Assembly: GCA_038145705.1 (NCBI GenBank)
Contig: JAYQQF010000009.1
Location: 68,422 to 132,421, forward strand
DNA from: Alphaproteobacteria bacterium
Lineage (GTDB): Bacteria > Pseudomonadota > Alphaproteobacteria > SMXQ01
Length of the DNA: 64,000 nucleotides
Direction: 5' to 3'
Below the pieces are notes generated by a model. That model made no database searches. It was not told the origin of the DNA and worked only from the letters and a program-made list of their open reading frames with translations. A program made the translations under genes and the position numbers. Shown piece after piece: positions 18,400 through 47,082 of the stretch; the stretch's first letter is position 1, and the number at the start of each line of letters is the position of its first letter.

Positions 18400-19020
18400 A
18401 TGACGTTTCCCGACAAGCGCTACGAGGACATCGCCGGATTTGCCGGTGATTATTTCGCGCATTACGGTCAGGCCGCGGCAAGCGTCCCGCGCGAGGCTCT
18501 CGCCCGGGCGGCCGATGTTCTGAAGGCTGCTTACGCCGGCGGCGCCAATGTCTATGCCTGCGGCAACGGCGGCTCGGCGGCGATTTCCAACCACCTGCTG
18601 TGCGATCATGCAAAATGCGTGCGCACCGATACCGGCTTGATGCCGCGCGTGGTCAGCCTGTCCGCCAACCTCGAACTCATTACGGCCATCGCCAACGACA
18701 TCGCCTATGACGATGTGTTCGTCTACCAGCTCCAGAGCCTGGGGCGCAAAGGCGATGTTTTGGTCACCATCAGTTCCTCGGGCGATTCGGAAAATGTCGT
18801 GCGTGCGATCCAGTGGGCGCGTGACAACGGGCTTCATACCATCGCGATGACCGGCTTTTCCGGCGGGCGCACGGCCAAGCTGGCCGACGTCAGCCTGCAC
18901 GTGGATGGAGACAACTACGGCGTGATCGAGGACGTGCACCAGTCGCTCATGCATATCCTTGCCCAGTACGTCCGTCTGTCCCATATGCCCGACGGTCTGA
19001 TCCGCGAGCGCAAATTCTAG
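18400..19020 (+). CDS. gmhA: SIS-domain sedoheptulose-7-phosphate isomerase (phosphoheptose isomerase)
   Basis: SIS fold with GNGGSAAISNH and TISSSGDSENV motifs, about 200 aa. Confidence 0.65.
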   Translation: MTFPDKRYEDIAGFAGDYFAHYGQAAASVPREALARAADVLKAAYAGGANVYACGNGGSAAISNHLLCDHAKCVRTDTGLMPRVVSLSANLELITAIANDIAYDDVFVYQLQSLGRKGDVLVTISSSGDSENVVRAIQWARDNGLHTIAMTGFSGGRTAKLADVSLHVDGDNYGVIEDVHQSLMHILAQYVRLSHMPDGLIRERKF

Positions 19021-23827: not shown

Positions 23828-25300
23828 TCAGGGCCCGCCCACGCCGAGTTGCTGTTCTGCCCTGGCGCGGGCGGCCCGGGTTTTCTTCGGCGCGCCGGCG
23901 CGGCGCCCGTCGGCAGGCACCGCCGGCAGGGCTGCGAAGGTGCTGTCTATTTCCTGGCGCGCCGAGAGGAAGCGGTTGCGCTCGGCGCCGTGCAGGGTGC
24001 GCCCGGTCGGCAGCTTGATCGACAGCGGATTCATGTGCCGGTTGTTGTAGAGCACTTCGTAGTGCAGGTGCGGGCCGGTCGAGCGCCCGGTGGTGCCGAC
24101 ATAGCCGATGATCTGGCCCTGGCTCACGCGTGCGCCGCGGTTGATGCCCTTGGCGAAGCGGCTCATGTGGGCGTAGGCAGTCGAATAGGTCGTGTTGTGA
24201 CGGATGCGGACGTAGCGGCCATAGGCGCCGTTCCAGCGCGCATCGACCACCACGCCGCGGCCTGCCGCCATGATCGGAGTGCCGGTCGGAGCGGCGAAGT
24301 CGATGCCCTTGTGCACCTTGGTATAGCCGAGGATGGGATGGCGCCGCTTGCCGAAGCGAGACGACAGGCGGGCGCCGTCGATGGGCGTGCGCATCAGCGC
24401 CTTGCGGGTGCTTTCGCCCTTGCCGTTGAAGTAGTCCCAGGTACCGTCGTCGCCGCGGAAGCGGTAAATCTCGAGCTTCTTGCCCGAAAGTGTCAGCGCC
24501 GCGTAGATGACGTCGCCGGAACCGACGACGTTTCCTTCGGTATCCTTGATGCGGTCGAACAGCAGGTCGAAACGGTCCTGGGGCTGGATATCGCGCTGGA
24601 AATCGACGTCATAGGAAAAGGCGCGGATCATCTCGACGATTACGGGCGGCGGCACGCCGGCATTCACCGAATCGACGTAAAGGCTGTTTTCGATACTGGC
24701 CGAGGCGCGGGTCTGTTCGTGAGTCAGCTTGGTTTTCGACAGATAGGCCTCGAATGCATTGTCCCAGGTGCGGGCGACGCCGACGGTTTCACGGATGGAC
24801 GGCATGAATTCGAAGCCGCGGAAGGATTCGCCCGCCTTGTTGTCGGGACCAAGGGGCTGGAAGCTCAGTTCCAGCTCGGTCCCGGCCACCAGTTCGCGCG
24901 GGTTGAACACCTTGCGCAGGGCGGAGACGGCCGCATGGGCATCATCGGAACGTACCCGCGCGCGGGCGAGTACCGTCGTCAGGGTGTCGCCGCTGCGCAC
25001 TTTCACGACCCGGGTGACGCTCCTTTGGCGATTTTCAAGAGCGCTATCGGGGGTGGTCAGGGACAGGACCGCCTGCCGGGCGTCGATGCGTGCCTCGTGG
25101 TCGGCGGGCGCCAGCGCGTCCCCGCGCGGCGCCGGCGCGATCCATGGTGCGACCCAGATCGCGACGCCCCAGGTCAGGGCGCCGATGGCGGCGGCGGTGA
25201 CGAGGCCCGGCTTCGGCAGGTACTGCGGCAGGCGCTGCCACCAGCGTCGTTCGACGGGCGGGGGGGAAGTCTGGTCGGATAAGGGGGTCTGGGAAGTCAT
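23828..25300 (-). CDS. M23 family metallopeptidase with an N-terminal membrane anchor
   Basis: C-terminal LytM/M23 domain (HKGIDFAAPTGTPI...GTTGRSTGPHLHYEV) and an N-terminal TM helix. The start MTSQTPL at 25298-25300 is chosen over the 899-aa ORF extension. Confidence 0.8.
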   Translation of the reverse strand: MTSQTPLSDQTSPPPVERRWWQRLPQYLPKPGLVTAAAIGALTWGVAIWVAPWIAPAPRGDALAPADHEARIDARQAVLSLTTPDSALENRQRSVTRVVKVRSGDTLTTVLARARVRSDDAHAAVSALRKVFNPRELVAGTELELSFQPLGPDNKAGESFRGFEFMPSIRETVGVARTWDNAFEAYLSKTKLTHEQTRASASIENSLYVDSVNAGVPPPVIVEMIRAFSYDVDFQRDIQPQDRFDLLFDRIKDTEGNVVGSGDVIYAALTLSGKKLEIYRFRGDDGTWDYFNGKGESTRKALMRTPIDGARLSSRFGKRRHPILGYTKVHKGIDFAAPTGTPIMAAGRGVVVDARWNGAYGRYVRIRHNTTYSTAYAHMSRFAKGINRGARVSQGQIIGYVGTTGRSTGPHLHYEVLYNNRHMNPLSIKLPTGRTLHGAERNRFLSARQEIDSTFAALPAVPADGRRAGAPKKTRAARARAEQQLGVGGP

Positions 25301-25579
25301 CGAATTCCGGTGACGTTGATATGCGCCTCTGTCCGTTTGCGGTCCTTTTCGCCCGGCGACCGCGAACAGGGGTGAAATTCCGGCCTCCCGAGCCGTGCCT
25401 GCCATCGGCAAACCGTTTACCGGTCTTAAGGCTGGCCGCAGCAGAATGGAGTCAAGCCCCCGCGCTGTCAACAAGGGGCCGGAGGATTTCCGGGGTTTTC
25501 GCTCGCATATGAAAATGATATCGCTACCGCGCGAACGTCGGGCCGGCACAGGCAAGCCGGTTTGGGGATACGGGAAAAA

Positions 25580-26560
25580 ATGGGCGAGAACACGGGTTTT
25601 TCGACACGACAACTCGCGATCATCGAGAGGATTTTCGGTGTCGCGGGGCGGCCCGAGGGCGACGCCATCGTCATCGGCGACAGAAAAATCCCGGTTCGCG
25701 ACGGCGTCATTCTGCTGGATGAGGCGGTCGCCGCGGGCGAGGCGCTCAAGAGCGACGTCATTCGCTCCTTCGGCAACGAATGGCAGGCCTTTGCCGACCT
25801 CAAGCCCGAACATCAGCTCGAATTCGATTGCTATTTCGACGTCGTCGAGGTTGCCGGGCTTGCGGGCAAGTCGGTGATCGACCTCGGCTGCGGCATGGGG
25901 CGCTGGTCGCGTATCCTGATGGACCGCACCACGCCGGACTTCCTCGTTTGCGTGGATCTGTCCGATGCCATTTTCGTTGCCCGCGAAAACCTCAAGGGTT
26001 GCGACAACGTCGTGTTCATCAAGGCGGACCTCGAACACCTCGACTTTCCGGGATTCCGGTTCGACTTCGCCTTTTCGCTGGGTGTTCTGCATCATATTCC
26101 CGCCGGTATCGAGACGGCGGTGGGAAATATCCACGGCTATGCTGCCCGCTTTCTTTGCTATCTTTATTACAGCCTTGAAAACCGGGGCCTCGGCTTTCGC
26201 CTGCTGTTCGGCGCGGCGACCTTGGTGCGCAAGGTTCTGTCGTCGATCGGACATGAGGGCACGCGCCGCTTCCTGTCCTGGCTGATCGCGGTCTTCGTCT
26301 ACAAGCCGCTGACGCTGATCGCTGATCTCGCGGGCGCGCTTGGCATGAACAAGGAGCGCGTGCCGCTCAACGCCTATTGCGGGTTTTCGATCGGCCGTAT
26401 CCAGCAGGATGCCTATGATCGCTTCTTCACCAAGGTCGAGCATAGGTTTTCGCGCGCCGACATCCAGCGCATCTTTTCGCCTTACTGGGAGCGGATAACG
26501 ATCTCGGACATTCAGCCGTTCTGGCATTTCTTTTGCGAGGGACGGCGGGAGAGACGATGA
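25580..26560 (+). CDS. class I SAM-dependent methyltransferase
   Basis: SAM-binding motif VIDLGCGMGRWS. ATG at 25580. Confidence 0.7.
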   Translation: MGENTGFSTRQLAIIERIFGVAGRPEGDAIVIGDRKIPVRDGVILLDEAVAAGEALKSDVIRSFGNEWQAFADLKPEHQLEFDCYFDVVEVAGLAGKSVIDLGCGMGRWSRILMDRTTPDFLVCVDLSDAIFVARENLKGCDNVVFIKADLEHLDFPGFRFDFAFSLGVLHHIPAGIETAVGNIHGYAARFLCYLYYSLENRGLGFRLLFGAATLVRKVLSSIGHEGTRRFLSWLIAVFVYKPLTLIADLAGALGMNKERVPLNAYCGFSIGRIQQDAYDRFFTKVEHRFSRADIQRIFSPYWERITISDIQPFWHFFCEGRRERR

Positions 26561-27597: not shown

Positions 27598-28239
27598 GTG
27601 TTTTCGACGAAGCCGCGCGCCAAGACCGAACTGGATTTCCTTGCCGCCCTCGAGCGCGGCGAGGTCGTAACCCAGGCAACCCTGTCGCGCCGGATCGGCA
27701 TCGCCATCGGGCTGGTCAACGCGCTTCTCAAGCGCGCGACGCTGAAGGGCTTCGTCAAGGTTCGCACCGCCCCCTACAAGCGTTACGCCTATTACCTCAC
27801 GCCCCGCGGCTTCGCCGAGAAGAGCCGTCTGGTGGCCGAATACCTCGAAGTTTCCCTCGAATTCTTCCGCGAGGCGCGGCGCCAGTACCAGGACCTGCTC
27901 TGGCGTGCCGAACAGTCGGGCCGCAAGCGTCTTGTCTTGGTCGGCGGCGGCGAACTTGCGGAAATCGCGGTCCTTGCGTCGCGCGATCTCGGCGTCGAAC
28001 TGGTCGCCGTCGTCGATGCCGAAACCAACAGGAGCAGCCTGTTCGGCCTTCCCGTCGTGAGGAACATTGATCAGGCCGCAGATTGGGACGCCGTCATCAT
28101 TACCGACAGCAAGCGGCCGCAGGCTGTATATGACGAGATTAAGGGCATTGTGGATCCCGCACGCTTGCTGGCCCCCGAACTGCTCAAGATTACCCTTGCA
28201 CCGTCCGAGGGGCTCGAAGAGGGGGAGAGCGCCGCATGA
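27598..28239 (+). CDS. transcriptional regulator with an N-terminal winged helix-turn-helix and a C-terminal CoA-binding-type Rossmann domain (Rex-like architecture)
   Basis: wHTH (TQATLSRRIGIAIGLVNALLKRATLKGFVKV) followed by a Rossmann-like module (RLVLVGGGELAEIAVLASRDLGVELVAVVD...GLPVV...DAVII). GTG start. Its stop overlaps the next gene's start (ATGA). Confidence 0.55.
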   Translation: MFSTKPRAKTELDFLAALERGEVVTQATLSRRIGIAIGLVNALLKRATLKGFVKVRTAPYKRYAYYLTPRGFAEKSRLVAEYLEVSLEFFREARRQYQDLLWRAEQSGRKRLVLVGGGELAEIAVLASRDLGVELVAVVDAETNRSSLFGLPVVRNIDQAADWDAVIITDSKRPQAVYDEIKGIVDPARLLAPELLKITLAPSEGLEEGESAA

Positions 28240-28733
28240 AGGGCTGGTACGTCGTCTGTACCCATCCGAATCAGGAAAGGCGCGCCGAGGAAAACCTCCG
28301 TCGCCAGGGATTCCGCCCTTGGGTGCCGAGTTTCGCGCGCCTGCGCCGGCATGCGCGTCGCGTCGAGCGGGTGCGCGCGCCGCTTTTCCCGGGCTATCTG
28401 TTCGTCGAACTTGACCCCGTGCGCGAACCCTGGTCTGCGATCAATTCGACCTTTGGCGTGAAGCGGCTGATTTGCCGCAAGGATGTTCCGGCCAGGCTGC
28501 CCGAGGGGTTCGCCGAAGATCTGCGCGCCAGCGTCGAATCGCCCGATTTCATTGCCCCCGAAGACCGGCTCGATGCCGGAGATCGGGTACGCATTACCGA
28601 TGGCCCGTTTGCCGATGCGGTCGGCTTTATCAGCTCGATCGATCCGCAGCAGAGGGTGTCGCTGCTTTTGAGTCTGCTCGGACGCGAAGTATCCGTCGTC
28701 GTGCCGCGCGACTTGGTCGTCCTCGCTTCCTGA
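28236..28733 (+). CDS. rfaH: RfaH-like specialised NusG paralog (operon-specific transcription antiterminator)
   Basis: NGN domain (MKGWYVVCTHPNQERRAEENLRRQG...PLFPGYLFVELDP) is collinear with E. coli RfaH (MQSWYLLYC...PLFPNYLFVEFDP). It has a KOW-like C-terminus and is 165 aa. There is no secE/rplK context. It lies immediately upstream of an exact ops element. Confidence 0.7.
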   Translation: MKGWYVVCTHPNQERRAEENLRRQGFRPWVPSFARLRRHARRVERVRAPLFPGYLFVELDPVREPWSAINSTFGVKRLICRKDVPARLPEGFAEDLRASVESPDFIAPEDRLDAGDRVRITDGPFADAVGFISSIDPQQRVSLLLSLLGREVSVVVPRDLVVLAS

Positions 28734-28833: not shown

Positions 28834-29772
28834 ATGAAGATTTTCGTTACCGGGGGATGCGGGTACAAGGGCACGGTGCTGGTGCCGAAGCTCCTGCGCG
28901 ACGGTCATGAGGTCGAGGTCCTCGACACCCAGTGGTTCGGCAATTTCCTTCCGAAGCATGCGGCGCTGAAGGTGCGCAAGGGCAGCGTCCTCGATATCGA
29001 GCGCATCAACCTTGAAGGCTTTGATGCCATCATCCACCTGTCGTCGGTTGCCAACGATCCTTGCGGCGATCTCGACCCGAAACTCACGTGGGAGATCAGC
29101 GCGCTCGCGACCATGCAAATCGCCGACAAGGCGGTTCGCCAAGGGGTGAAGCAGTTCATCTATGCGTCGTCGGGCAGCGTTTACGGCGTCAAGGAGGAAG
29201 AGCAGGTCACCGAGGATCTCGAACTGCTCCCCATCTCCGAATACAACAAGACCAAGATGGTGGCGGAACGGGTGCTGCTGTCCTACGAGCCGCAGATGGC
29301 CATTCAAATCGTTCGACCGGCGACGGTCTGCGGGCTGTCGCCGCGCATGCGCCTCGATGTTTCGGTCAACATGCTGACCATGCAGGCGCTCGAGCGGGGG
29401 CAAATCACCGTGTTCGGCGGTGACCAGACGCGCCCCAACATCCACATGGACGACATCACCGACGTTTACCTGCATCTCCTCGGCAACCCGGAAATCCGCG
29501 GGGTTTACAACGCCGGCTTCGAAAATCTCTCGATCATGGAAATTGCCGAGATGGTGACGTCCTTCGTTCCGGCGAAGATCGTCAAGCAGGGATCGAACGA
29601 TCCGCGCTCCTATCGCGTCAATTCGGACAAGCTTCTTGCGACCGGTTTCACGCCGCGCAAGACGGTGCGCGACGCCATCGCCGAGATCGTCGCGGCCTAC
29701 AAGGCGGGCGATCTCAAGAACGAACCGCATTTCCACAATCTGAAGTGGATGCAGGAAAAGGTTTTGGGTTAG
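28834..29772 (+). CDS. NAD-dependent epimerase/dehydratase (extended SDR) family protein
   Basis: Motifs VTGGCGYKG and the catalytic YNKTK. RBS GGGAAGG. Confidence 0.75.
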   Translation: MKIFVTGGCGYKGTVLVPKLLRDGHEVEVLDTQWFGNFLPKHAALKVRKGSVLDIERINLEGFDAIIHLSSVANDPCGDLDPKLTWEISALATMQIADKAVRQGVKQFIYASSGSVYGVKEEEQVTEDLELLPISEYNKTKMVAERVLLSYEPQMAIQIVRPATVCGLSPRMRLDVSVNMLTMQALERGQITVFGGDQTRPNIHMDDITDVYLHLLGNPEIRGVYNAGFENLSIMEIAEMVTSFVPAKIVKQGSNDPRSYRVNSDKLLATGFTPRKTVRDAIAEIVAAYKAGDLKNEPHFHNLKWMQEKVLG

Positions 29773-29786
29773 GTGGAGTTGTAAAC

Positions 29787-30791
29787 TTGACGCAAGGAGC
29801 GCCGAAGGTTCTGGTTTTGGGCAGCAACTCGTTCTCCGGGGCGAGTTTCGTTGCCCACGCGCTCGCACGCGGCGCGGACGTGATCGGCGTCAGCCGTTCC
29901 CCGGAACCCAACGCTGTCTTCCTGCCTTACCGCTGGGGCGGGGGGCTCGACCGCTTCCGTTTCCGCGCCCTCGACATCAATCGGGACCTTGATGCGATCA
30001 TTTCCCTGACGACCGCGGAAAAGCCCGATTACTTCGTAAATTTTGCCGCCCAGAGCATGGTCGGCGAAAGCTGGGACCGGCCCGAGGACTGGTTTCGTAC
30101 CAATGCGGTTTCCACCGTCATGCTGCACAACAGGCTGCGCAAGGAATGCGGCTTCCTCAGGAAGTTCGTGCATGTGACGACGCCCGAGGTCTATGGCAGT
30201 ACCCAGGGTTTCATCGACGAGACCACGCCCTTCAACCCGAGCACGCCCTACGCAGCGTCGCGCGCGGCGGGCGACATGAGCCTCAAGACTTTCGTCGAGG
30301 CCTACGGGTTCCCGGCCGTTTCCACCCGCGCCGCCAATGTTTACGGGCCGGGCCAGCAGCTTTACCGGATCATTCCGCGCACGATCCTGTTCATCCGCAT
30401 CGGCCGGAAGCTGCAGTTGCAGGGTGGCGGTCTGTCGGAGCGTTCATTCATCCATATAGACGATGTCAGCGACGCGACCTGGCGCGTCATGGAGGATGGC
30501 CCGGCCGGCGAGGTCTATCACATCTCCACCAACGAGATCGTGACCATCCGCGCGCTGGTCGAGCGCATCTGCGCGTTGATGAAGGTTTCCTTCGACGAGG
30601 TGGTCGAGGTCGTCGGCGACCGTCTGGGCAAGGATTCGGCCTACAAGCTCGACAGCACGAAAATCCGCAAATCTCTGGGTTGGACCGACCGCATCGGTCT
30701 GGACGAAGGCCTCGGGCAATGCATCGACTGGGTCGACCGCAACCTCGATGTCCTCAAGACCCAGGAAATGAATTACATCCACAAGCCGTGA
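29787..30791 (+). CDS. NAD-dependent epimerase/dehydratase (sugar-nucleotide 4,6-dehydratase-like) family protein
   Basis: Extended SDR fold (LVLGSNSFSGASF...TPYAASRAAGD). The start is uncertain: TTG at 29787 with a GGTGGAG RBS, or GTG at 29745, which overlaps the upstream gene. Confidence 0.65.
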   Translation: MTQGAPKVLVLGSNSFSGASFVAHALARGADVIGVSRSPEPNAVFLPYRWGGGLDRFRFRALDINRDLDAIISLTTAEKPDYFVNFAAQSMVGESWDRPEDWFRTNAVSTVMLHNRLRKECGFLRKFVHVTTPEVYGSTQGFIDETTPFNPSTPYAASRAAGDMSLKTFVEAYGFPAVSTRAANVYGPGQQLYRIIPRTILFIRIGRKLQLQGGGLSERSFIHIDDVSDATWRVMEDGPAGEVYHISTNEIVTIRALVERICALMKVSFDEVVEVVGDRLGKDSAYKLDSTKIRKSLGWTDRIGLDEGLGQCIDWVDRNLDVLKTQEMNYIHKP

Positions 30792-30813: not shown

Positions 30814-32385
30814 ATGGCTGAACAAAAACCTTTCGATCGCCGTAGCCAGCCGCGCATGGCGCGCAACAAGATCCGCTCCATTGCGGAACTCGGCGAGATA
30901 TCTGCGCGCGCCAAGGCCGAGGGCCGCAAGGTCGTTCTCTGCCATGGCGTTTTCGACCTGTTGCACATGGGCCATGTCCGTCACCTTGAGGCCGCGCGCC
31001 GCGAAGGCCATGTCCTGTTCGTGACGCTGACCGCGGACAAGCATGTCAACAAGGGGCCCGGCCGGCCCGTCTTCACGGAACAGCTGCGCGCCGAGATGAT
31101 CGGATCGGTCGAATATGTCGATTGGGTCGGCATCAACGAAGCGCCCAGCGCGGAGCCCGTTCTTCAGGCCATCAAGCCCGATATCTACGTCAAGGGCAGC
31201 GACTACAAGAACCCGGGCGAGGACGTCACGGGCCGCATCGTTTCCGAACAGGAGGTTGTGGAGGCCCACGGCGGAAAGATCGTTTTCACCGACGACATCG
31301 TTTTTTCCTCGTCGGCGCTGATCAACCAGCATCTGGGGATTTACGAGCCGACGCTTCAGGCCTATCTCGGGCGGCTGCGCGACGAAGGCCGCCAGCAGCA
31401 GCTTCTCGATGCGATTGAGCGGCTCAGAGATCTCAAGGTCGTGGTCATCGGCGATGCCATTATCGACGAGTACCAGTACGTCCAGCCGATGGGCCGTTCG
31501 GCCAAGGAAAACATGATCGCGACCCTGTTCCAGGAACGCGAGGTCTTTGCCGGGGGCGTCTTCGCCGCGGCCAACCATGTCGCCGATTTCTGCGAGAACG
31601 TCACGGTCATCACCGGTTTCGGCGGCTACGACACCTACGAGGAAATGGCGCGCGGCAGCCTCAAGCCGAACATCTCGCTTCGGGCCGTATACCGGAAGGA
31701 AGCGCCGACCACGCGGAAGTGCCGCTTCATCGACCATGGCTATTCGATGCGCAAGATGTTCGAGGTCTACTTCATGGACGACAGGCCGTTGTCTGAAGAA
31801 AGCAGGCTGTCTCTAAACCGAGAGATTGAAAAAGCAATCACGGACGCCGATGTAGTCATTGTCACCGATTTCGGTCATGGCCTGCTTAGTGGCGACAGCA
31901 TCGCGCTTCTGGAGCAGAAATCGAAATTCCTCGCGGTGAATTCGCAGTCGAACGCCGGCAATCACGGCTACAACCTGGTCAGCAAATACAGGCGGGCGGA
32001 TTACGTGTGCGTCGACGGAACCGAGGCGCGGCTGGCGGTCCATGACAAATTTTCCGACATGGAAGATGTCGTAACAAAGCTTTTGCCCGGCCTGATTGAC
32101 TGCAACAACATCGTCGTCACGTTGGGCAAAAACGGCTGCTTCGCGTTCGACCGCAAGGCCGGCCTTTGCAAGGTTCCGGCCTTGACCAGTTCCATTGTCG
32201 ATACGGTCGGCGCGGGCGATGCGTTTTTCGCGCTCAGCGCGCCGATGGTAGCCGTCGGCCTGCCGATGGAACTGGTCGGCTTCTTCGGCAATGCGGCGGG
32301 CGCCATGAAGGTCGGCATCGTCGGCCACCGTTCCTCGGTCGAGAAAGTCCCGATGATCAAGTTCCTGACGGCGCTGCTGAAATAG
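30814..32385 (+). CDS. bifunctional heptose-1-phosphate nucleotidyltransferase / heptose-7-phosphate kinase-like protein (HldE-like, domains in reversed order)
   Basis: The N-terminus is an HxGH cytidylyltransferase-like domain (LCHGVFDLLHMGHVRHL...VTLTADKHVNKGPGRPV), as in HldE domain II. The C-terminus is a PfkB/ribokinase-family kinase (DTVGAGDAFF), as in HldE domain I. Confidence 0.65.
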   Translation: MAEQKPFDRRSQPRMARNKIRSIAELGEISARAKAEGRKVVLCHGVFDLLHMGHVRHLEAARREGHVLFVTLTADKHVNKGPGRPVFTEQLRAEMIGSVEYVDWVGINEAPSAEPVLQAIKPDIYVKGSDYKNPGEDVTGRIVSEQEVVEAHGGKIVFTDDIVFSSSALINQHLGIYEPTLQAYLGRLRDEGRQQQLLDAIERLRDLKVVVIGDAIIDEYQYVQPMGRSAKENMIATLFQEREVFAGGVFAAANHVADFCENVTVITGFGGYDTYEEMARGSLKPNISLRAVYRKEAPTTRKCRFIDHGYSMRKMFEVYFMDDRPLSEESRLSLNREIEKAITDADVVIVTDFGHGLLSGDSIALLEQKSKFLAVNSQSNAGNHGYNLVSKYRRADYVCVDGTEARLAVHDKFSDMEDVVTKLLPGLIDCNNIVVTLGKNGCFAFDRKAGLCKVPALTSSIVDTVGAGDAFFALSAPMVAVGLPMELVGFFGNAAGAMKVGIVGHRSSVEKVPMIKFLTALLK

Positions 32386-33357
32386 ATGATGGACGCAACC
32401 ACCCGCAAGGCGCTTTACCGTGCCATGAGCCGCATCCGCACCGTCGAGGAACGGATCGCGGACCTGTATCCCGAGCAGGAGATGCGCTGTCCGGTGCATC
32501 TGTGCATCGGGCAGGAGGCGGCGGAGGCCGGAACCGGTCTGGCGCTCGATCGGCGCGACTATGCGCTGTCGGGGCACCGGTCCCATGGCCATTACCTTGC
32601 CAAGGGCGGCGATCTCAAGGGCATGATGGCTGAAATCTACGGCAAGGCCACGGGATGCGCGGGCGGCAAGGGCGGCTCCATGCACCTTGTCGATCTCGAT
32701 GCCGGGTTCCTCGGCGCCGTGCCCATCGTCGGCAGCACCATTCCCATCGCCGTCGGCACCGCCTTCAGTTCGAAAATGAAGGGCGAGGACCGGGTGACCA
32801 TGGTCTTCTTCGGCGACGGCGCGACGGAGGCGGGCGTGTTTCACGAAAGCCTCAACTTCGCCGCCCTGCATGCTCTGCCCATCGTCTTCGTCTGCGAAAA
32901 CAACCTCTATTCCGTGTATTCGCCGATGGGCGTGCGCCAGCCTGACGGGCGTTCCATCGCCGGGATTGCCGCGGCCCATGGTGTCGCGACCCAAACGGGC
33001 GACGGCAATGATGCCGAGGCGGTCTTCACGCTCGCCAGCAAAGCAGTGGATGCTGCCCGGCGCGGACAGGGGCCGGTTTTCATCGAGCTTTCCACCTATC
33101 GCTGGCGCGAGCATTGCGGACCCAATTTCGACAATCACATCGGCTATCGCACCGAGGCCGAGTACGAGGAATGGCGGCAGCGAGATCCGCTGGCGCTCTA
33201 CCGCGCCCGGCTGATTGCCGACGGCGCCGCCACGGGCGCGGAACTCGCCGCCATCGATGCGGAACTCGCCGCCGAAATGGAGGACGCCGTAACGTTCGCG
33301 AAGTCCTCCCCGTTCCCGCCGCGCGAGAGCGCCGGCCAGCACATCTACGCTGAGTGA
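32386..33357 (+). CDS. thiamine-diphosphate-dependent dehydrogenase E1 component, alpha subunit (PDH/acetoin-DH E1-alpha-like)
   Basis: ThDP-binding motif GDGATEAG...NN and E1-alpha-like length and pattern. Confidence 0.8.
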   Translation: MMDATTRKALYRAMSRIRTVEERIADLYPEQEMRCPVHLCIGQEAAEAGTGLALDRRDYALSGHRSHGHYLAKGGDLKGMMAEIYGKATGCAGGKGGSMHLVDLDAGFLGAVPIVGSTIPIAVGTAFSSKMKGEDRVTMVFFGDGATEAGVFHESLNFAALHALPIVFVCENNLYSVYSPMGVRQPDGRSIAGIAAAHGVATQTGDGNDAEAVFTLASKAVDAARRGQGPVFIELSTYRWREHCGPNFDNHIGYRTEAEYEEWRQRDPLALYRARLIADGAATGAELAAIDAELAAEMEDAVTFAKSSPFPPRESAGQHIYAE

Positions 33358-33367
33358 GGGCCGCGCC

Positions 33368-34426
33368 GTGACCAGACAGATCAAGTTTTTCGAAGCGCTG
33401 CGCGAAGGCCTTGACCAGTGCATGGGGGCCGATGCCTCCGTCTACGTGATGGGCCTCGGCGTGCCCGATCCGGGCGGAATCTTCGGTTCGACCAAGGGGC
33501 TTGTGGAAAAATACGGGGCATCCCGGGTGCTCGACATGCCGCTCGCCGAAAACACCATGACAGGCGTTGCCATCGGTTCGGCGCTGACGGGACTGCGGCC
33601 GGTGCTGACCCACCAGCGCGTCGATTTTGCCATCCTGTCGATGGAGCAGCTCGTCAACCAGGCGGCCAAGTGGCACTACATGTTCGACGGGCGCATGCGC
33701 GTGCCGCTGGTCGTGCGCATGATCATCGGGCGCGGCTGGGGGCAGGGCCCGCAGCATTCCCAGAGCCTGCAGGCGATGTTCGCCCAGGTGCCGGGCCTCA
33801 AGGTGGTAATGCCGACCACGGCGTATGACGCCAAGGGTCTGCTGATCGCCGCCATCGAGGACGATAACCCGGTGGTCATGCTCGAGCACCGCTGGCTTTA
33901 CGGCATCGCCGACGATGTCCCCGAAGAGGCCTATCGGGTTCCGCTCGGCAAGGCCAAGATCATGCGCGAGGGCGGCGACGTCACCATCGTCGGGCTGTCC
34001 TACATGAGCCTGGAAAGCCTGCGCGCGGCAGATATTCTGAAGGGCTACGGCATTTCCGCCGAGGTCATCGACCTTCGTTCGCTGCGTCCCCTCGATGAAG
34101 CGACGATCCTGGCGTCGTTGCGCAAGACGGGCCGTCTTGTCGTCACCGATACGGCGCACGGGCCTTTCGGGGCGACGTCGGAGATCATGGCGCTCGCGGC
34201 GGAAAAGGCATTCGGCGCCCTCAAGGCGGCGCCGTCGCGGGTCTGCCTGCCCGATCATCCAGCACCGACCAGTCCGGCGCTTGCCGACGATTTCTATCCG
34301 CGCGCCGGCCACATCGCCGCCGCGGTGCTGCGCCAGTTGGGCCGCGAACCGGATGCCGCGCTGTTTGCGCCGCCCGCGGGCCGCCGCCTCGACCAGCCCG
34401 ATTCATCGTTTCAGGGGCCATTCTGA
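33368..34426 (+). CDS. E1 component beta subunit (transketolase-like pyrimidine-binding domain plus C-terminal domain)
   Basis: E1-beta pattern (MPLAENTMTGVAIG...RVPLVVR...VVMLEH...VTIVGLS). GTG start. Confidence 0.8.
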   Translation: MTRQIKFFEALREGLDQCMGADASVYVMGLGVPDPGGIFGSTKGLVEKYGASRVLDMPLAENTMTGVAIGSALTGLRPVLTHQRVDFAILSMEQLVNQAAKWHYMFDGRMRVPLVVRMIIGRGWGQGPQHSQSLQAMFAQVPGLKVVMPTTAYDAKGLLIAAIEDDNPVVMLEHRWLYGIADDVPEEAYRVPLGKAKIMREGGDVTIVGLSYMSLESLRAADILKGYGISAEVIDLRSLRPLDEATILASLRKTGRLVVTDTAHGPFGATSEIMALAAEKAFGALKAAPSRVCLPDHPAPTSPALADDFYPRAGHIAAAVLRQLGREPDAALFAPPAGRRLDQPDSSFQGPF

Positions 34427-35619
34427 TGAGTGAATTGCTTTCCAGCCTGTCGACGTCGCTCGGTACCGCTTGCGCAGTCTGTGGTGGGCCCACGGAGTCG
34501 ACCCTTGAACTGCCCGGGTTGCCTCTGACCGATACCTTCACGCGGACGCCGGTCGACAATCCCGTGAGCGGCATCGACCAGACGTTCAGGTTCTGCGAGG
34601 CCTGCGGGCACGGCCAGTTGGGGCATCAGGTCGCGCCCGAGGTGCTTTACGGCAGCAATTACTGTTTCCGCACATCGGCAAGCCCGACGGCGCGAAAGGG
34701 TACCGATTTCTTCATGTCGCTGCTGGACGAGGTAGCGGCAGGACGCCAGTTTCGCTCGGCCATCGATCTTGGCTGCAACGATCTTTTCCTTCTTGATCGT
34801 GTCGGCGACCGTGCCGCATTGCGCACAGGCGTCGATCCGATCTGGAAGGGGCGCGAGCATGAAATGGATGGCCAGCCCATCCGCGTGATCGGCGCCCCCA
34901 TCGAGGACGTGGATCTTTCCGTGCTGGACCAGAAGCCGGACCTCGTGATGTGCCGCCACACGCTCGAACACATCGCGCGTCCGCGCGATGTCGTTGCGGG
35001 ACTGCTGGCGGGCGCGGCTGACGATGCCATTTTCGTTTTCGAGGTTCCGGGCATCGAGGCTCTGGTCAACCGCTGTCGTTTCGACCAGGTGTTTCACCAG
35101 CATCTCCAGTATTTTTCGATGCGGTCGTTTCTGAAAATGCTGGAAGGCCTTGGCGCCAGGGCCATCGCGGTGAAGTCGCACTATCACGACTGGGGCGCCT
35201 TCGCGGTCGCGTTCGCCAAGGGTGGCGATGGTGGCGCGGCGCCCCTGCTGGATGCCCCGGACGGGGAGAAGATGTCTTCTCGGCTGAAGGTTTTCCGCTC
35301 GCAGATGGCTGCGAACGCGGAATTGATACGATTGATCGATGGACCGGCCTTCGGTTACGGCGCCGCGCAGATGTTGCCGGTGCTCGCCTATCACATGGGC
35401 ACGGATCTCGGGTTTCTCGACGCGGTGATCGATGACGATCCGGAAAAGGAAGGCGTATTCTACTGGAACCTGCCGGTCAGCATCCGGCCGCTCGCAGCGG
35501 TGGGAAGCCTCGATGCCGCGACGGTCCTGATTACGGCGGTCGACAGCGCGCAGCCCATTTTGCGCCGTCTTCTCGAAAGGCGGCCCCGTCACATCATTCA
35601 TCCCTTCAACATGATTTAA
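34426..35619 (+). CDS. C-methyltransferase-family protein (N-terminal zinc ribbon, SAM methyltransferase, C-terminal C-MT domain; TylC3/NDP-hexose C-methyltransferase-like)
   Basis: CAVCG...CEACGHG zinc-binding pairs, a methyltransferase core (IDLGCNDLF) and a long C-terminal domain, as in sugar C-methyltransferases. Confidence 0.6.
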   Translation: MSELLSSLSTSLGTACAVCGGPTESTLELPGLPLTDTFTRTPVDNPVSGIDQTFRFCEACGHGQLGHQVAPEVLYGSNYCFRTSASPTARKGTDFFMSLLDEVAAGRQFRSAIDLGCNDLFLLDRVGDRAALRTGVDPIWKGREHEMDGQPIRVIGAPIEDVDLSVLDQKPDLVMCRHTLEHIARPRDVVAGLLAGAADDAIFVFEVPGIEALVNRCRFDQVFHQHLQYFSMRSFLKMLEGLGARAIAVKSHYHDWGAFAVAFAKGGDGGAAPLLDAPDGEKMSSRLKVFRSQMAANAELIRLIDGPAFGYGAAQMLPVLAYHMGTDLGFLDAVIDDDPEKEGVFYWNLPVSIRPLAAVGSLDAATVLITAVDSAQPILRRLLERRPRHIIHPFNMI

Positions 35620-37164: not shown

Positions 37165-37953
37165 ATGACCGCCAACGTGCTCAACAAGGATTTGCGCCGG
37201 CTGATCGTCGACATGACTGTCGCCGGGCGCGACGGGCATATCCCGAGCGCCTTCTCGATCGTGGATATCATCACCTATCTTTACGACCATGTTCTTCGGA
37301 TCGATCCGAAGAAACCGGATGATCCCGCGCGCGATTATTTCGTCCTCAGCAAGGGGCATGGATGCCTGGCGCTTTACGTCAACCTGCGCCGGCATGGGTT
37401 CATTACCGATCACGATATCGACACCTTCTGCAAGAAGGGCGGGATCCTCGGCGAGCATCCCGATCTGTGCAAGGTGCCGGGCGCCGAAGCGTCGTCGGGC
37501 TCCCTCGGCCATGGGCTCAGTTTTGCGGTCGGCATCGCGATGGGGCACAAGATCAAGAAGATGAACAACCGCATGTTCGTCCTGATCGGCGATGGCGAAA
37601 GCCACGAAGGCACCGTCTGGGAAGCAGCCCATGTCGCGGCCAATCACCGGCTGAAGAACCTCTGCGTGATCGTCGACTGGAACCGCTCGGGCATGCAGCT
37701 TCTGCCGATGGACGACCTGCCGGCGAAGTGGCGGGCCTTCGGCTGGCACACCCAGGAAATCGACGGCCACGACGAGGCCCAGATCAAGGCTGCCTGCGAT
37801 GCGGTCGCGGCCAAGACGACGGACCAGCCGAGCGTGATCGTTGCTCATACGGTCAAAGGCAAGGGCGTGCCGATGATCGAAGGACACGGCATGTGGCATC
37901 ACCGCATTCCCAACAAGGACGAATACGCTCACATCATGGAAGTGTTGTCATGA
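37165..37953 (+). CDS. transketolase, N-terminal (ThDP-binding) subunit of a split transketolase
   Basis: HIPSAFSIVDI...LSKGHG...GSLGHGL...GDGESHEG, the transketolase N-section. Confidence 0.8.
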   Translation: MTANVLNKDLRRLIVDMTVAGRDGHIPSAFSIVDIITYLYDHVLRIDPKKPDDPARDYFVLSKGHGCLALYVNLRRHGFITDHDIDTFCKKGGILGEHPDLCKVPGAEASSGSLGHGLSFAVGIAMGHKIKKMNNRMFVLIGDGESHEGTVWEAAHVAANHRLKNLCVIVDWNRSGMQLLPMDDLPAKWRAFGWHTQEIDGHDEAQIKAACDAVAAKTTDQPSVIVAHTVKGKGVPMIEGHGMWHHRIPNKDEYAHIMEVLS

Positions 37954-38882
37954 CCCCGGAAAAAGCCCTGCGTCAGCAGTTCGCCGATACCATGCTGGCG
38001 GTCGGCCAGGAAGACAGAGACCTCGTCGTCATCGTCGGCGACATCAGTCACGGCATCCTCCAGCCCTTCGCCAAGGCCTGCCCGGAGCGTTATTTCAACA
38101 TCGGCATCCTTGAACCGACGACCATGAGCCTGACCGCCGGCATGGCCCGCGTCGGTTTGTATCCGGTGCTGCACACGATCGCCCCGTTCCTGATCGAGCG
38201 CTCGTTCGAGCAGATCAAGCTCGATTTCTGCTATCACAAGCTGCACGGCAACATCATCACCGTGGGCAGCGCCTTCGACTATTCGAACCTCGGCTGTACC
38301 CATCACTGTTACGGCGACTTCGCCTTGCTCAAGACCCTGCCGGGTGTCGAGATCACCTACCCGGGATCGGCCGTCGAGTTCGATGCGCTCTTCCGTCAGG
38401 CCTATCGCAACGACAAGGTGACCTATTACCGCCTGCCCGGTACGCCGCACGGGGTCGTGTTCAAGCCCGAGGACGTCGTGCTAGGCAGGGGCATCAAGGT
38501 GGCAGAGGGGTCCGATATCACCCTGATCGGGACCGGCCCGCACCTGCGCACCGCACTGGATGTGCGTGACCGCCTGGCGGCCGAAGGCAAGAGCGCCGAG
38601 GTGCTCTACATCCATACCATCCGCCCCCTCGATTGCGAGCTGGTGCGCGCGAGCATTGCCAAGACCCGGAGGGCCGTGGTGATCGAGGAACACATGCGAT
38701 CGGGCGGGCTCGGCGACGAGGTGCTGAGAGAAACGCGGGACATTCCCGATGTCAAGTTTGCCTCCGCTTCGATCCCGGACCGCTTTGTCACCGGCTACGG
38801 TACCTACGAGGACCTGCTCGAGAGCATCGGGCTGACGGTTGATGGGGTCCTGTCGCTGATCGCGGAAAAGCGTTTCTTCTGA
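37950..38882 (+). CDS. transketolase, C-terminal (pyrimidine-binding plus C-terminal domain) subunit
   Basis: ATGA overlap with the upstream subunit. Transketolase C-section motifs (YFNIGILEPTTMSLTAG...). Confidence 0.8.
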   Translation: MTPEKALRQQFADTMLAVGQEDRDLVVIVGDISHGILQPFAKACPERYFNIGILEPTTMSLTAGMARVGLYPVLHTIAPFLIERSFEQIKLDFCYHKLHGNIITVGSAFDYSNLGCTHHCYGDFALLKTLPGVEITYPGSAVEFDALFRQAYRNDKVTYYRLPGTPHGVVFKPEDVVLGRGIKVAEGSDITLIGTGPHLRTALDVRDRLAAEGKSAEVLYIHTIRPLDCELVRASIAKTRRAVVIEEHMRSGGLGDEVLRETRDIPDVKFASASIPDRFVTGYGTYEDLLESIGLTVDGVLSLIAEKRFF

Positions 38883-38893
38883 AAGTCAGGGAA

Positions 38894-39892
38894 ATGAGCA
38901 ACGAGCGCACGCGAGCCATTGTTCTGGAACAGGTCGCTGCCCTTTCGGGCAAGGCGGATACGGTGGTTTCCGTCTGGGACACGCAGATTTTCCCGCTGAC
39001 CGTCGGCGGGCTGCTCATCGGGTTGCAGGAAATCCTGATGCTGCGCGCGCTCGTGGGGGCGCGGCGCGGCGTTCTTTGCGTGATTTCCCCGAAGGATGCC
39101 GGAGGCGGCGTGGCATTCAGGGCCGGCGATGCCGTGCCGAACCCGCTCGTGGAATTTGCGATGGCGACGCAAGCCATCGAGGAGTTCCATTACCTGCCCG
39201 ACCACGCTGCGGTTGCCGGCGTTGTCGCCGGGCGCTCCGCCCTGCTCTGGCCGTCCGAAACGGTTGCGCGGGAGCGGGCCCATGTTTATGGCACCACGCT
39301 TTACCTTCAGGCCCTTTACGACAGGCTCGGCAGGTTGCCGATGCTCTCGGTAGCAGGTCCCGCAAAAGAGTGGGCTCGGCGGTTTCTGGCTGAAAAATTC
39401 GGCGCCCGCCCGGTCATCGCCCTGCACCTGAAGAACAAGCCTGGTGCGATCAACGAAAGCAACGCGAATTTCCCCGCCTGGGCGGAATTCCTCGCAGAGG
39501 CGCCGGTGCGCCACGAGTGCGGCTTCGTCCTCGTCGGCAACGAGCCGGTGCCTGATTCGGTTCGGTCCCTGCCGCATGTCGTGCTCGCAGCCGACCATGG
39601 CAGCGCCTTGTGCCGCGATCTCGCCCTGATCGACTGTGCCCAGGCGTTCATGGGCATGGCGAGCGGCCTTTGCCAGATGGCGATGTTCGGTTCGAAGCCC
39701 TACATCGTGTTCAAGAATCCCGGACACCATGCCCCGGAAATGCAGCTTGAGCTTGGCGATGCCGATGGCTTCAACTTTTCGGGCAGGGCGCAGAAACTGC
39801 TGCGCATCCTTGATTCCCAAGATGTCCTTTTCCGCGAGTTCGGCGACGTTCTCGATGCTCTCGAATGCGGGACCGAGGAGGCCAGAACATGA
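38894..39892 (+). CDS. hypothetical protein, glycosyltransferase family 9 (heptosyltransferase)-like
   Basis: A weak GT9-like pattern (RPVIALHLKNKPGA...FVLVGNEP...ALIDCAQAFMGMASGLCQMAMFGSKPYIVF). Confidence 0.4.
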   Translation: MSNERTRAIVLEQVAALSGKADTVVSVWDTQIFPLTVGGLLIGLQEILMLRALVGARRGVLCVISPKDAGGGVAFRAGDAVPNPLVEFAMATQAIEEFHYLPDHAAVAGVVAGRSALLWPSETVARERAHVYGTTLYLQALYDRLGRLPMLSVAGPAKEWARRFLAEKFGARPVIALHLKNKPGAINESNANFPAWAEFLAEAPVRHECGFVLVGNEPVPDSVRSLPHVVLAADHGSALCRDLALIDCAQAFMGMASGLCQMAMFGSKPYIVFKNPGHHAPEMQLELGDADGFNFSGRAQKLLRILDSQDVLFREFGDVLDALECGTEEART

Positions 39893-40784: not shown

Positions 40785-41453
40785 ATGGGTCAGGAAATCA
40801 ATCTTCTCTCGGAATATCCGCGTTCCAAACGACCGATCGACGATCGCGCCAAGCTGATTACCGAAGAGCATCGCGCCGTCGCCCGCAAATTTGGCCCGGA
40901 ATTCTTCGATGGGGACCGGCTGACCGGGTATGGAGGGTTTAATTACCATCCGAGGTTCTGGACCGATACGGTGCGCCGGTTCCGCGATCATTACAATCTG
41001 GCATCCGACGCGCGGGTTCTCGATGTCGGCTGCGCCAAGGGCTTCATGATATATGACTTCAAGCTGCTGATGCCTGAAGCTGATGTGCGCGGTATCGATG
41101 TTTCCAGCTACGCGATAGAGCATGCGAAAGAAGAGGTTCGGGAGTTCGTGCAGGTTGCCGATGCAATGCAGCTGCCATATCCCGACAACTCCTTCGATCT
41201 TGTGATCTCGATAAACACTATCCATAACCTGCCTCTTGATCAGTGCAAGCAGGCTTTGCGGGAAATCCAGCGCGTATCGAAAAAAAACGCCTTCGTAACG
41301 ATGGACGCTTGGCGCAACGAAGCGGAAAAAAAGGCGATGCTCGCGTGGAATCTCACCGCGCTCACCTACATGCATGTGGATGACTGGAAAAAAGTTTTTG
41401 ATGAGGTCGGTTACACCGGTGACTACTATTGGTTCATTGCTGAATCGGCCTGA
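40785..41453 (+). CDS. class I SAM-dependent methyltransferase
   Basis: Motifs VLDVGCAKG and DLVISINTIHNL. Confidence 0.7.
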   Translation: MGQEINLLSEYPRSKRPIDDRAKLITEEHRAVARKFGPEFFDGDRLTGYGGFNYHPRFWTDTVRRFRDHYNLASDARVLDVGCAKGFMIYDFKLLMPEADVRGIDVSSYAIEHAKEEVREFVQVADAMQLPYPDNSFDLVISINTIHNLPLDQCKQALREIQRVSKKNAFVTMDAWRNEAEKKAMLAWNLTALTYMHVDDWKKVFDEVGYTGDYYWFIAESA

Positions 41454-44863: not shown

Positions 44864-45065
44864 ATTGGCGACTTCCTGATATGTCTGGATGCATAAAATG
44901 TTTTGCCGCCCGCAAGGCGCCACTCGATGCAGCCGTTATTCCCGCGCGCTTGAACTTCAGGCAGCGGCAAGCAGGAATTTCCGCTTAGTGAGAACAGCGG
45001 CTTCGGCATTGTCCATTGTGACCGGTCCCGATGTTTCAGAACAGCGAAGTCAGCCGATGGGTGAA

Positions 45066-45668
45066 CTAGTCGCCGTGTCTGCTGGCGTGCTTCAGAATAT
45101 GGGCCGCCGCCGCGCTCAGGTCGGGGAAAATCGCCGTCGCCCGTGGCAGTCCTCGTTCTTTTTCATGTGCCAGCCGATCGATTTCCTTGGCGCCATGGCC
45201 ACTTCGCAGCAGGTAGGTGGTGCCGAGCCCTGCATTGATGCCGGCTTCGATGTCGGTAAGCGTGTCACCGATCATAATGCTGGACGAAAGCTCGATACAG
45301 AAATCGCGGGCGGCCTGCAGAAGGAGACCCGGGCCCGGTTTTCTGCAGTCGCTCGCGCGCCGATAGGCTTCAACAGAAGCTTCAGGATGGTAGGGCGAAA
45401 AATATATTGCGTCGATTTTTGCGCCCTCTATCGCAAGAAGAGTCAGAAGCCGTTCGTGTATTTTTTCGAGCCCCTCCTCACTGAGGTACCCACGGGCAAT
45501 CGCGGATTGATTTGTCACGACGATGACAAGCCATCCCGCAAGATTGAGCGATCGCACGGCTTCCGCCGCGCCAGACAGCAATGCGATCTGATCCGGATCC
45601 GTGATGTAACTTTGCTCACGGTTCAGAACGCCGTCGCGGTCCAGAAAAATTGCACTCCTTTTCCGCAT
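45066..45668 (-). CDS. gmhB: D-glycero-D-manno-heptose 1,7-bisphosphate phosphatase (HAD-IIIA)
   Basis: Motifs FLDRDGVLN, VVTNQS and KP..G. About 200 aa. It is the only minus-strand gene inside the locus. Confidence 0.8.
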   Translation of the reverse strand: MRKRSAIFLDRDGVLNREQSYITDPDQIALLSGAAEAVRSLNLAGWLVIVVTNQSAIARGYLSEEGLEKIHERLLTLLAIEGAKIDAIYFSPYHPEASVEAYRRASDCRKPGPGLLLQAARDFCIELSSSIMIGDTLTDIEAGINAGLGTTYLLRSGHGAKEIDRLAHEKERGLPRATAIFPDLSAAAAHILKHASRHGD

Positions 45669-45865
45669 CGTGTGATGACCTTGGCAAAACTCTCGCGTCT
45701 CAAGTCCGCCCATCCGCAGCGGGTAACGCCCAGAATCTTAGATTGTTTTCAACGAGTCAATTCTTGGTACGCAGGGCACCCATTCTCGGCGCCCCAGGGC
45801 ATGGACATTAAAAATATCCGGCAACAACGGCGATGTATCGAGCCTTATAAGGCGGAGTCAACGAC

Positions 45866-47029: not shown

Positions 47030-47082
47030 TCCGGCTACTGCGATGGCTGGTTTGCCGCCTCTGTATGGCGGAATTTTTGCGC

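Follow-up and report, generated by a model that had tools for sequence, protein, structure and literature searches.

Bacterial surfaces are built in part from NDP-heptoses (NDP, nucleoside diphosphate), which in vertebrates act as potent agonists of ALPK1. One route to them, the GDP-heptose pathway, runs through GmhA, the GHMP kinase HddA, GmhB, and HddC, has a 6-deoxyheptose branch (DmhA/DmhB), and serves capsules and S-layer glycans. In canonical HldE, an N-terminal kinase domain and a C-terminal adenylyltransferase domain share one polypeptide; in Burkholderia and Neisseria, HldA and HldC are separate enzymes (PDB 4e84; 5x9q/5xf2). Commentaries on a recent cross-kingdom survey of the HENases, enzymes of NDP-heptose biosynthesis that have nucleotidyltransferase (NT) activity, list three architectures: NT alone, kinase/NT, and isomerase/kinase/NT, for example in the septacidin pathway. 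The same commentaries report that the NT domain carries a conserved (F/L)XXGXSTT motif (Tang et al., Science 2024; PMC11573728, PMC11461863) and describe an Arg at the position of the STT motif that confers CTP/UTP promiscuity (PMC11573728). Here we describe a 64,000-nucleotide stretch of DNA from an alphaproteobacterium (the window; contig JAYQQF010000009.1, positions 68,422 to 132,421), in which one open reading frame (ORF) encodes the same two types of catalytic domain as HldE, its nearest curated relative, in a single polypeptide but in the opposite order. We refer to this NT-kinase fusion as the target.

The target ORF opens with ATG and closes with TAG, and its G+C content at third codon positions (0.79) is typical for genuine genes of the window, a region of ~60-65% GC. 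The start lies 22 nt downstream of the stop codon of the upstream short-chain dehydrogenase/reductase (SDR) gene, and the TAG directly abuts the ATG of a gene for the alpha subunit of a thiamine diphosphate (ThDP)-dependent E1 enzyme. The target sits in a tight operon with SDR and E1 alpha/beta genes, an arrangement that recurs in Azospirillum oryzae, Magnetospirillum sp. ME-1, and Solidesulfovibrio carbinolicus, and the E1 genes of the window are likely translationally coupled to it. Pfam assigns residues 43-134 to CTP_transf_like (PF01467, E 5e-13) and residues 208-510 to PfkB (PF00294, E 1.4e-19). When aligned by BLASTP to a database protein serving as the E. coli-type HldE reference (P0280), target residues 25-157 match HldE 327-454 (39% identity, E 1e-21) and target residues 209-507 match HldE 13-302 (23% identity, E 3e-13). 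Because these segments lie in permuted order on HldE, the reversed domain order is proven, and the arrangement that characterizes HldE, kinase first and adenylyltransferase last, is not that of the target. A preliminary description of this DNA had called the gene HldE-like with swapped domains, quoting the strings CHGVFDLLHMGHVRHL...KGPGRPV and DTVGAGDAFF; both strings are in the translation, and the Pfam order and permuted alignment bear the description out. An artefactual origin of the fusion, by frameshift or by chimeric assembly of two neighbouring genes, has a negligible probability and is excluded. An identical protein is called on two independent JGI metagenome contigs, one of 340 kb, and the protein is found in finished genomes and plasmids. 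In addition, hundreds of homologs are full-length and collinear with the target. Most of the best 150 representatives recovered from databases align over their full length in one stretch, and in collinear alignments of 21 and 27 members each half has residues that do not vary and the helical linker is conserved.

By sequence as well as by predicted fold, the nearest relatives of the two halves are heptose enzymes, HldC and HldA. Among NCBIfam models, the NT half is best matched by rfaE_dom_II (110.1 bits, E 7.9e-32, residues 29-170), which beats the runner-up TagD (36 bits) by 74 bits; the kinase half is matched over its full length by rfaE_dom_I (105.5 bits, E 2.8e-30, residues 201-505; ribokinase, 42). 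The same pattern of best models holds across 27 phylogenetically diverse members. The AlphaFold2 model of the full-length target has a mean pLDDT of 83.8, and a separate model of the NT domain has a pLDDT of 80.8. In fold searches with Foldseek, HldA was the best match of the kinase half (4e84/4e8w; E 7.5e-21 to 1.8e-19, TM 0.75-0.82), ahead of Pfk-2 and ribokinases at ~1e-16, and HldC was the best match of the NT half (5xf2; E 6e-12, TM 0.78-0.86, root-mean-square deviation 2.3 A), ahead of pantothenate synthetase, TagD, and Fom1 at ~1e-7 and ECT at 3e-6. The preliminary description had proposed such domain-level profile searches and had seen a generic C-terminal sugar kinase as one result that would overturn its assignment; since rfaE_dom_I is the best profile and HldA the best fold, the C-terminal domain is not a generic sugar kinase. 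The loops that contain KGPGRP and FSSS are the sole low-confidence parts of the full-length model, a behaviour expected of ligand-closing loops.

The motifs of the target reveal both its kinship with HldE and its divergence from it. The HxGH, KGxxRP, GG, PT.TK.R, and GAGD motifs are present in both. Within the family HxGH is invariant as H51-M-G-H54, the KGxxRP loop is common to the family, HldE, and HldC, and a PT.(T/R)K.R(F/V) strand is common to the family and HldE. Members of the PfkB/ribokinase superfamily are marked by a GG dipeptide, an NXXE motif, and a C-terminal GAGD catalytic motif. The target has all three, as an invariant AGG at 246-248, an invariant DTVGAGDAF at 463-471, and the variant D401-G-T-E404 in place of NXXE; E404 is invariant in both alignments, and D401 is invariant in the 21-member but not in the broader 27-member alignment. 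The marks of the PF01467 superfamily, HxGH and a C-terminal ISTT-type motif, are likewise present, the latter as the variant F-S-S-S. Unlike HldE, the target has its domains reversed and joined by a ~30-residue helical linker, an altered STT motif, DxxE for NXXE, a five-residue insertion in the NT half (D137-x-T-G-x-I-x-x-E145), and scores that reach a third to half of the equivalog cut-offs; its context is a variable surface-glycan operon and not the lipopolysaccharide (LPS) core. The separate HldA and HldC are the best structural matches of its halves, but the target differs from them in being fused and in belonging to a distinct subfamily at 21-31% identity. The target resembles HldE yet falls outside its curated membership in domain order, in its scores below the equivalog cut-offs, and in lacking the HENase hallmark motif.

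Judged from its sequences, the swapped HldE-like fusion is a large, widespread, and distinct subfamily with many entries in public databases. A word-indexed search found 120 proteins that are 56-100% identical to the target, and an exhaustive HMMER scan, run over 1.84 billion representatives at 50% identity, gave 1,196 matches at E <= 1e-30. Among the best 150 of these, E stays below 1e-89 throughout, and the majority are ~500-530 aa long and align to the query (~18-523) in one collinear stretch. The precomputed Pfam string of the homologs is not positional, as canonical HldE gives an identical string, so it is the collinear alignment that is evidence for a shared domain order. With one genome scanned per species, full-length members were found in Alphaproteobacteria (including Bradyrhizobium, Azospirillaceae, Rhodospirillales, and Rickettsiales), Deltaproteobacteria, Gammaproteobacteria, Elusimicrobia, Omnitrophota, Verrucomicrobiota, Planctomycetota, Bdellovibrionota, Chlamydiales, Anaerolineales, and Microcoleus; the family spans more than ten phyla. 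Like the HldA and HldC pair, the subfamily also has unfused versions: in two loci of DPANN archaea (L046, L051) the kinase and NT are ~1-1.6 kb apart on opposite strands, an unfused kinase of the same subfamily (35-41% identity) occurs in L043-L045, L046, and L051, and an actinobacterium has a kinase-only homolog. Genes for SIS proteins, DegT aminotransferases, and transketolase lie near the unfused kinase in some of the L043-L046/L051 loci. Phage genomes yielded stand-alone NT-domain matches and no full-length fusion. In a metagenome-assembled genome from Elusimicrobia (L039:857-2802), tandem NT matches (857-1276, 1300-1815) precede the kinase domain; this arrangement would be NT-NT-kinase and would recall eukaryotic ECT, with its tandem repeats. 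Database names for the members are generic ('PfkB family carbohydrate kinase', 'adenylyltransferase/cytidyltransferase family protein', 'rfaE ... nucleotidyltransferase chain/domain'), and neither the architecture nor the family was described in any paper found by a literature search that covered HldE domain order, cytidylyltransferase-PfkB fusions, and related heptose and glycan clusters. A permuted fusion of two known domains is in itself unsurprising.

What the protein does is better indicated by the domains to which it is fused in its relatives. One family member of 699 aa (P0126) begins with a GmhB domain, followed by NT and kinase. The best PDB matches of this GmhB domain are D,D-heptose 1,7-bisphosphate phosphatases (4pnh, E 6e-25; E. 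coli 2gmw, 3e-20), and it is 37.5% identical to the GmhB-like gene of the window (E 8e-31). Another member, of 764 aa (P0220), runs from NT to kinase to a C-terminal SIS (GmhA) domain, for which phosphoheptose isomerases are the best PDB matches (2i22, E 5e-18) and which is 48-62% identical to the SIS proteins encoded beside the fusion elsewhere. Together, these two proteins mean that all four activities of an NDP-heptose relay are covalently linked within the family, and they are the strongest available evidence, at the level of sequence, that the target may work in a relay of this type. The HENases as described in the commentaries share the four-activity relay and multi-domain relay fusions with the target family, but the orders found in the family (NT/kinase, GmhB/NT/kinase, and NT/kinase/isomerase) are not among the three architectures given there.

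The neighbourhood of the fusion is also conserved. To map its partners, we searched 40 full-length loci, drawn from more than ten phyla, with reference proteins by tblastn and resolved paralog cross-matches at >=35% identity; because several contigs are incomplete, the counts are lower bounds. The commonest partner is an SDR that we call SDR-B (31/40 loci), followed by a second SDR, SDR-A (26/40). A GmhA-like SIS protein (directly adjoining the fusion in 14 loci), a ~205-aa HAD-like protein, and a split transketolase (TK) pair each occur in 22 of the 40; a 222-aa methyltransferase was found in 20, DegT aminotransferases in 16, an APH-like kinase in 15, and the E1 alpha/beta pair in 10. The module recurs in the gene tables of Magnetospirillum sp. 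ME-1, an Azospirillum assembly, and marine contigs. For the cluster SIS proteins gmhA is the best profile match; they also keep the GmhA signature blocks, a point that is supportive only, as the E. coli GmhA reference sequence was approximate. The HAD-like partner begins with IGLDFDNTI, a DxDxT nucleophile motif, continues with VSHKT and FIDD, and matches no curated family. By genomic association and fusion, the target family is thus accompanied by the isomerase and phosphatase that, with a kinase, make up the relay of the HENases as the commentaries present it. No locus among the 40 has both the TK and the E1 pair. The window is exceptional in carrying both, which suggests two C2-transfer steps or two merged pathways.

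Two further partners of the module belong to the 'sporadic carbohydrate cluster' families TIGR04324 (2OG-Fe(II) oxygenase) and TIGR04323 (LIC12192 family), named after Leptospira LIC12192. These marker genes share the module with the fusion in 12-13 of the 40 loci (for example, L004:15699-16935, L003, and L005), but tblastn against the whole window did not find them there, and our literature search found no paper mentioning the TIGR04323/TIGR04324 cluster families. The 318-kb plasmid of Azospirillum oryzae KACC 14407 has the order SDR, SDR, fusion, SIS, SDR, E1 alpha, E1 beta, and then two DegT genes, a radical SAM gene, a NUDIX gene, and family 4 glycosyltransferases (GT4s); L003 likewise has a NUDIX gene after the module. 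In Solidesulfovibrio carbinolicus DSM 3852 (L088, pDCAR1), the module lies inside a pseudaminic-acid locus, and in the marine loci L005/L006 a CMP-sugar synthetase and NeuB paralogs are encoded beside the fusion. Such settings hint that the module is connected with Pse/Leg-type glycosylation of flagellin or capsule. The nonulosonic-acid genes around the module in L088 and L005/L006 comprise pseB/pseC/pseF, NeuB-family synthases, and CMP-sugar synthetases.

These comparisons lead us to propose that the target probably acts in a four-step NDP-heptose-type relay that feeds a surface-glycan pathway. In this proposal, a GmhA-like SIS isomerase would convert a ketose phosphate, most likely sedoheptulose 7-phosphate, to the aldose phosphate, and the C-terminal HldA-like PfkB domain would use ATP to phosphorylate the anomeric O-1, giving a 1,7-bisphosphate. 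A GmhB-type or HAD phosphatase would then remove the distal phosphate, and the N-terminal HldC-like HxGH domain would join the sugar 1-phosphate and an NTP to form an NDP-beta-heptose or close analogue. The product would be destined for a surface glycan and not for the LPS inner core, after tailoring by SDRs of the 4,6-dehydratase, epimerase, and reductase types, E1 alpha/beta, the split transketolase, and methyltransferases. Such tailoring would resemble 4,6-dehydration followed by the C2-branch or C2-extension chemistry that is known for E1-type and transketolase-type enzymes in deoxysugar pathways. The route would be like the GDP-heptose pathway in being a non-core nucleotide-heptose route that feeds SDR 4,6-dehydratase/reductase tailoring, but that pathway uses unrelated GHMP kinase and NTP_transferase folds and makes an alpha anomer, whereas the target has PfkB and HxGH domains as in the beta-anomer ADP route. 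As for the substrate, the 7-phosphate of D-glycero-D-manno-heptose has a nearly even chance, and one of another chain length or configuration is a tentative but real contender; which nucleotide is used, the regiochemistry, and the eventual glycan are likewise inferred. The NDP-heptose pathway that the preliminary description had put forward thus gains support, mainly from the GmhA-like SIS and HAD genes that neighbour the fusion and from the GmhB and GmhA fusions. Its suggestion that the reversed order might change the nucleotide or the anomer needs another footing: domain order alone says nothing about chemistry, and the question arises because the family diverges, with scores below the equivalog cut-offs and an altered STT motif.

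Several observations weigh against the proposed relay. The target scores 154.4 bits against the HldE model NF008454 (cut-off 521), its kinase half, just 23% identical to HldE, 105.5 bits against a TIGR02198 cut-off of 345, and its NT half 110.1 bits against a TIGR02199 cut-off of 181.5; the 27 diverse members are all below these cut-offs, with best E values of only 2e-56 (NF008454), 1e-40 (TIGR02198), and 6e-35 (TIGR02199). The (F/L)XXGXSTT motif reported in the HENase commentaries is altered: in a MAFFT alignment the HldE sequence F-E-D-G-C-S-T-T is opposite D-D-I-V-F-S-S-S of the target, and of the family consensus [DEKN]-[DE]-[IV]-[TV]-[FY]-S-S-[ST] just the Ser/Thr triplet S-[ST]-[ST] survives. 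Where the commentaries place the promiscuity Arg, the family has an invariant aromatic (F164 of the target), which could, judging from its position, stack on the base. A phmmer search of the PDB scores the NT half about equally for eukaryotic ECT and for HldC. Within the window, the sole SIS gene lies among housekeeping genes, the GmhB-like gene is 13 kb from the target on the other strand, and the cluster-type SIS, HAD-like, and APH genes of the typical module are absent. The GT9 domain (PF01075) was found by Pfam in none of the main candidate ORFs scanned across the window.

The divergence of the components also fits an alternative version of the relay, with a substrate other than D-glycero-D-manno-heptose or a nucleotide other than adenine (for example, a hexose 6-phosphate or octose 8-phosphate made from a different ketose phosphate, or a product linked to CDP, UDP, or GDP). 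The fusion, the SIS protein (97-126 bits against a cut-off of 209), and the HAD-like protein (no curated match) are all divergent paralogs, the STT motif is altered, with the aromatic at the Arg position known from the HENase commentary (PMC11573728), and the split transketolase of 22 loci could supply a non-standard ketose phosphate. However, heptose enzymes are the nearest characterised relatives of every component, the mutual exclusivity of TK and E1 in the 40 loci suggests a downstream C2-transfer role and not precursor supply, and no positive evidence singles out any particular alternative; we consider this version unlikely, though worth keeping in view. At the other extreme, the target could be an isofunctional housekeeping HldE for the LPS inner core that is merely permuted, as both halves are homologous to HldE and GmhB-like and GmhA-like genes are within the window. 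Its setting makes this improbable: the operon is of a variable O-antigen/capsule type behind a NusG-like antiterminator, the LPS inner-core partners hldD and the GT9 genes waaC and waaF were not found in the window, and the conserved neighbours of the fusion are SDRs, ThDP enzymes, aminotransferases, and radical SAM enzymes, in many cases within nonulosonic-acid loci. Moreover, no member reaches the equivalog cut-offs, and DPANN archaea, Chloroflexi, and an actinobacterium, which have no classical LPS cores, carry the family or its unfused or kinase-only relatives.

A very improbable reading departs from heptose chemistry altogether. In it, the NT half is a TagD/ECT-like cytidylyltransferase of a CDP-alcohol or CDP-polyol route, the PfkB domain phosphorylates a non-anomeric position, and the output is a phospho-substituent donor instead of a glycosyl donor. 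Pfam assigns the NT half only to the generic cytidylyltransferase-like family, ECT is the top phmmer PDB match by summed score, and APH-family kinases, relatives of choline/ethanolamine kinases, are common neighbours; but the ECT score sums two repeats and HldC is the best single-domain match, HldC leads the fold search by four orders of magnitude, rfaE_dom_II scores 74 bits above TagD, and the GmhA and GmhB fusions would make no sense in such a route. The NDP-heptose-type relay remains our preferred account of the target.

The window offers a view of the wider setting in which the target would act (Table 1). Up to ~21.8 kb it encodes housekeeping functions (cysDN-like, ask, ptsP-like, rodZ, ispG, hisS, hemA, prfA, prmC, and clpB), and the glycan region opens at 21.8 kb with fcl and galE. 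The operon is headed by MarR-type and NusG-like genes, which are similar to the antiterminator pairs dedicated to polysaccharide loci. The dTDP-glucose-4,6-dehydratase-like SDR immediately upstream of the target has orthologs at 44-56% identity in L012, L032, L036, L039, L041, L045, and L049. Farther downstream lie genes for a GT4, an ABC exporter, a GT2, rmlB/rmlA, a DegT protein, a GT61, an ATP-grasp protein, two radical SAM proteins, and an FkbM methyltransferase. The SIS protein of the window is just 35% identical to the cluster SIS of L004 and is not of the cluster type; it is a possible candidate for the relay isomerase.

Table 1. Features of the window that bear on the target and its proposed pathway
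Feature	Position	Strand	Basis
SIS protein, GmhA/DiaA-like, among housekeeping genes	18400..19020	+	TIGR00441 gmhA 126 bits, cut-off 209
MarR-type exopolysaccharide (EPS) regulator	27598-28239	+	TIGR04176
NusG-like antiterminator	28236-28733	+	Pfam NusG + KOW
Extended SDR (SDR-B), commonest partner of the fusion	28834..29772	+	Pfam Epimerase; 43% identity to L003/L005 flanking SDR
dTDP-glucose-4,6-dehydratase-like SDR	29745..30791 (JGI start 29787)	+	TIGR01181 204.8 bits, cut-off 365
Target NT-kinase fusion, permuted HldE-like, 523 aa	30814..32385	+	ORF, Pfam, NCBIfam, BLASTP
HldC-like NT domain (residues ~19-175; HGVFDLLHMGH, NKGPGRP loop, FSSSALIN)	30868..31338	+	rfaE_dom_II, HldC fold, motif alignment
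HldA-like PfkB domain (residues ~201-510; GDAIIDEY, AGG, PTTRKxRF, DFGHG, DGTE, DTVGAGDAF)	31414..32343	+	rfaE_dom_I, Foldseek
ThDP-dependent E1 alpha	32386-33357	+	Pfam E1_dh, Transket_pyr, Transketolase_C (E1 pair)
ThDP-dependent E1 beta	33368-34426	+	Pfam E1_dh, Transket_pyr, Transketolase_C (E1 pair)
TylC3-like sugar C-methyltransferase-like protein	34426..35619	+	Methyltransf_13 zinc-binding + Methyltransf_23
Methyltransferase	35641	+	
SDR	36354	+	
Split transketolase TK-N	37165-37953	+	Pfam; TK pair 44-46% and 33-34% identity to family-locus TK subunits
Split transketolase TK-C	37950-38882	+	Pfam; ATGA overlap with TK-N
Protein of 332 aa	38894-39892	+	Without Pfam or NCBIfam match
SDR	39865	+	
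Class I methyltransferase of the module	40785..41453	+	Pfam; 41-42% identity to L004/L005 methyltransferase
GmhB-like HAD-IIIA phosphatase, candidate for the third relay step	45066..45713	-	PRK08942 168.7 bits (cut-off 178), TIGR00213 141.5 (149.6)
ORF of 387 aa	45866-47029	+	Without significant Pfam or NCBIfam match
ORF of 478 aa	47065-48501	+	Without significant Pfam match

Two neighbours named in the preliminary description fared differently from the fusion. A GmhB-like gene does exist where gmhB had been placed (45066-45668), but it is on the minus strand, extends to 45713, and scores just under the family cut-offs. A plus-strand ORF at 44889-45869 (326 aa), antisense to the GmhB-like gene and with a stop that overlaps the next plus-strand gene start by 4 bp, was considered as gmhB and rejected, as it has no family matches; it probably represents a shadow ORF, easily called as a gene by mistake. 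The GT9-like gene of that description was not recovered: no GT9 domain was found in any window gene scanned against Pfam. The gene that was meant may be among the ORFs at 38894-39892, 45866-47029, and 47065-48501, none of which gives a GT9 signal. Elsewhere, an 899-aa ORF on the minus strand (23828-26527) is over-extended, with M23 peptidase domains in its C-terminal part only; here the JGI calls are a 490-aa gene and a plus-strand methyltransferase over 25.6-26.6 kb. Beyond ~40 kb the GC content falls from ~0.62-0.65 to ~0.53-0.58, and the distal glycan region (~40000-64000) may be of different, horizontally acquired origin.

Part of this picture is already known: databases contain many examples of the architecture, and NCBIfam/TIGRFAM curators have taken note of its neighbourhood. 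As a genomic marker, the fusion offers a handy way to trace a conserved glycan module whose only label from annotators is 'sporadic carbohydrate cluster'. Measured against the HENases as the commentaries portray them, we tentatively suggest that the fusion could be a fourth architecture and the signature gene of a phylum-spanning pathway, reaching from Alphaproteobacteria to Elusimicrobia, Omnitrophota, Planctomycetota, Cyanobacteria, and, in unfused form, DPANN archaea, in which an NDP-beta-heptose would be dehydrated, aminated, and C2-extended or C2-branched by a ThDP enzyme to give a higher-carbon surface sugar; the nucleotide would possibly be other than ADP, and the sugar possibly often deployed alongside nonulosonic acids. 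Should the enzyme prove to be an ordinary ADP-heptose synthase, the finding would shrink to a curiosity of domain order. Some hosts can be cultured (Azospirillum oryzae KACC 14407, Magnetospirillum sp. ME-1, and Solidesulfovibrio carbinolicus DSM 3852), so that both the product and what the ThDP enzymes do are open to direct tests. If the suggestion is true, the family would add at least one architecture to the three recognised in the survey, plus two tri-domain forms, and many organisms, often without classical LPS, may make heptose-derived nucleotide sugars.

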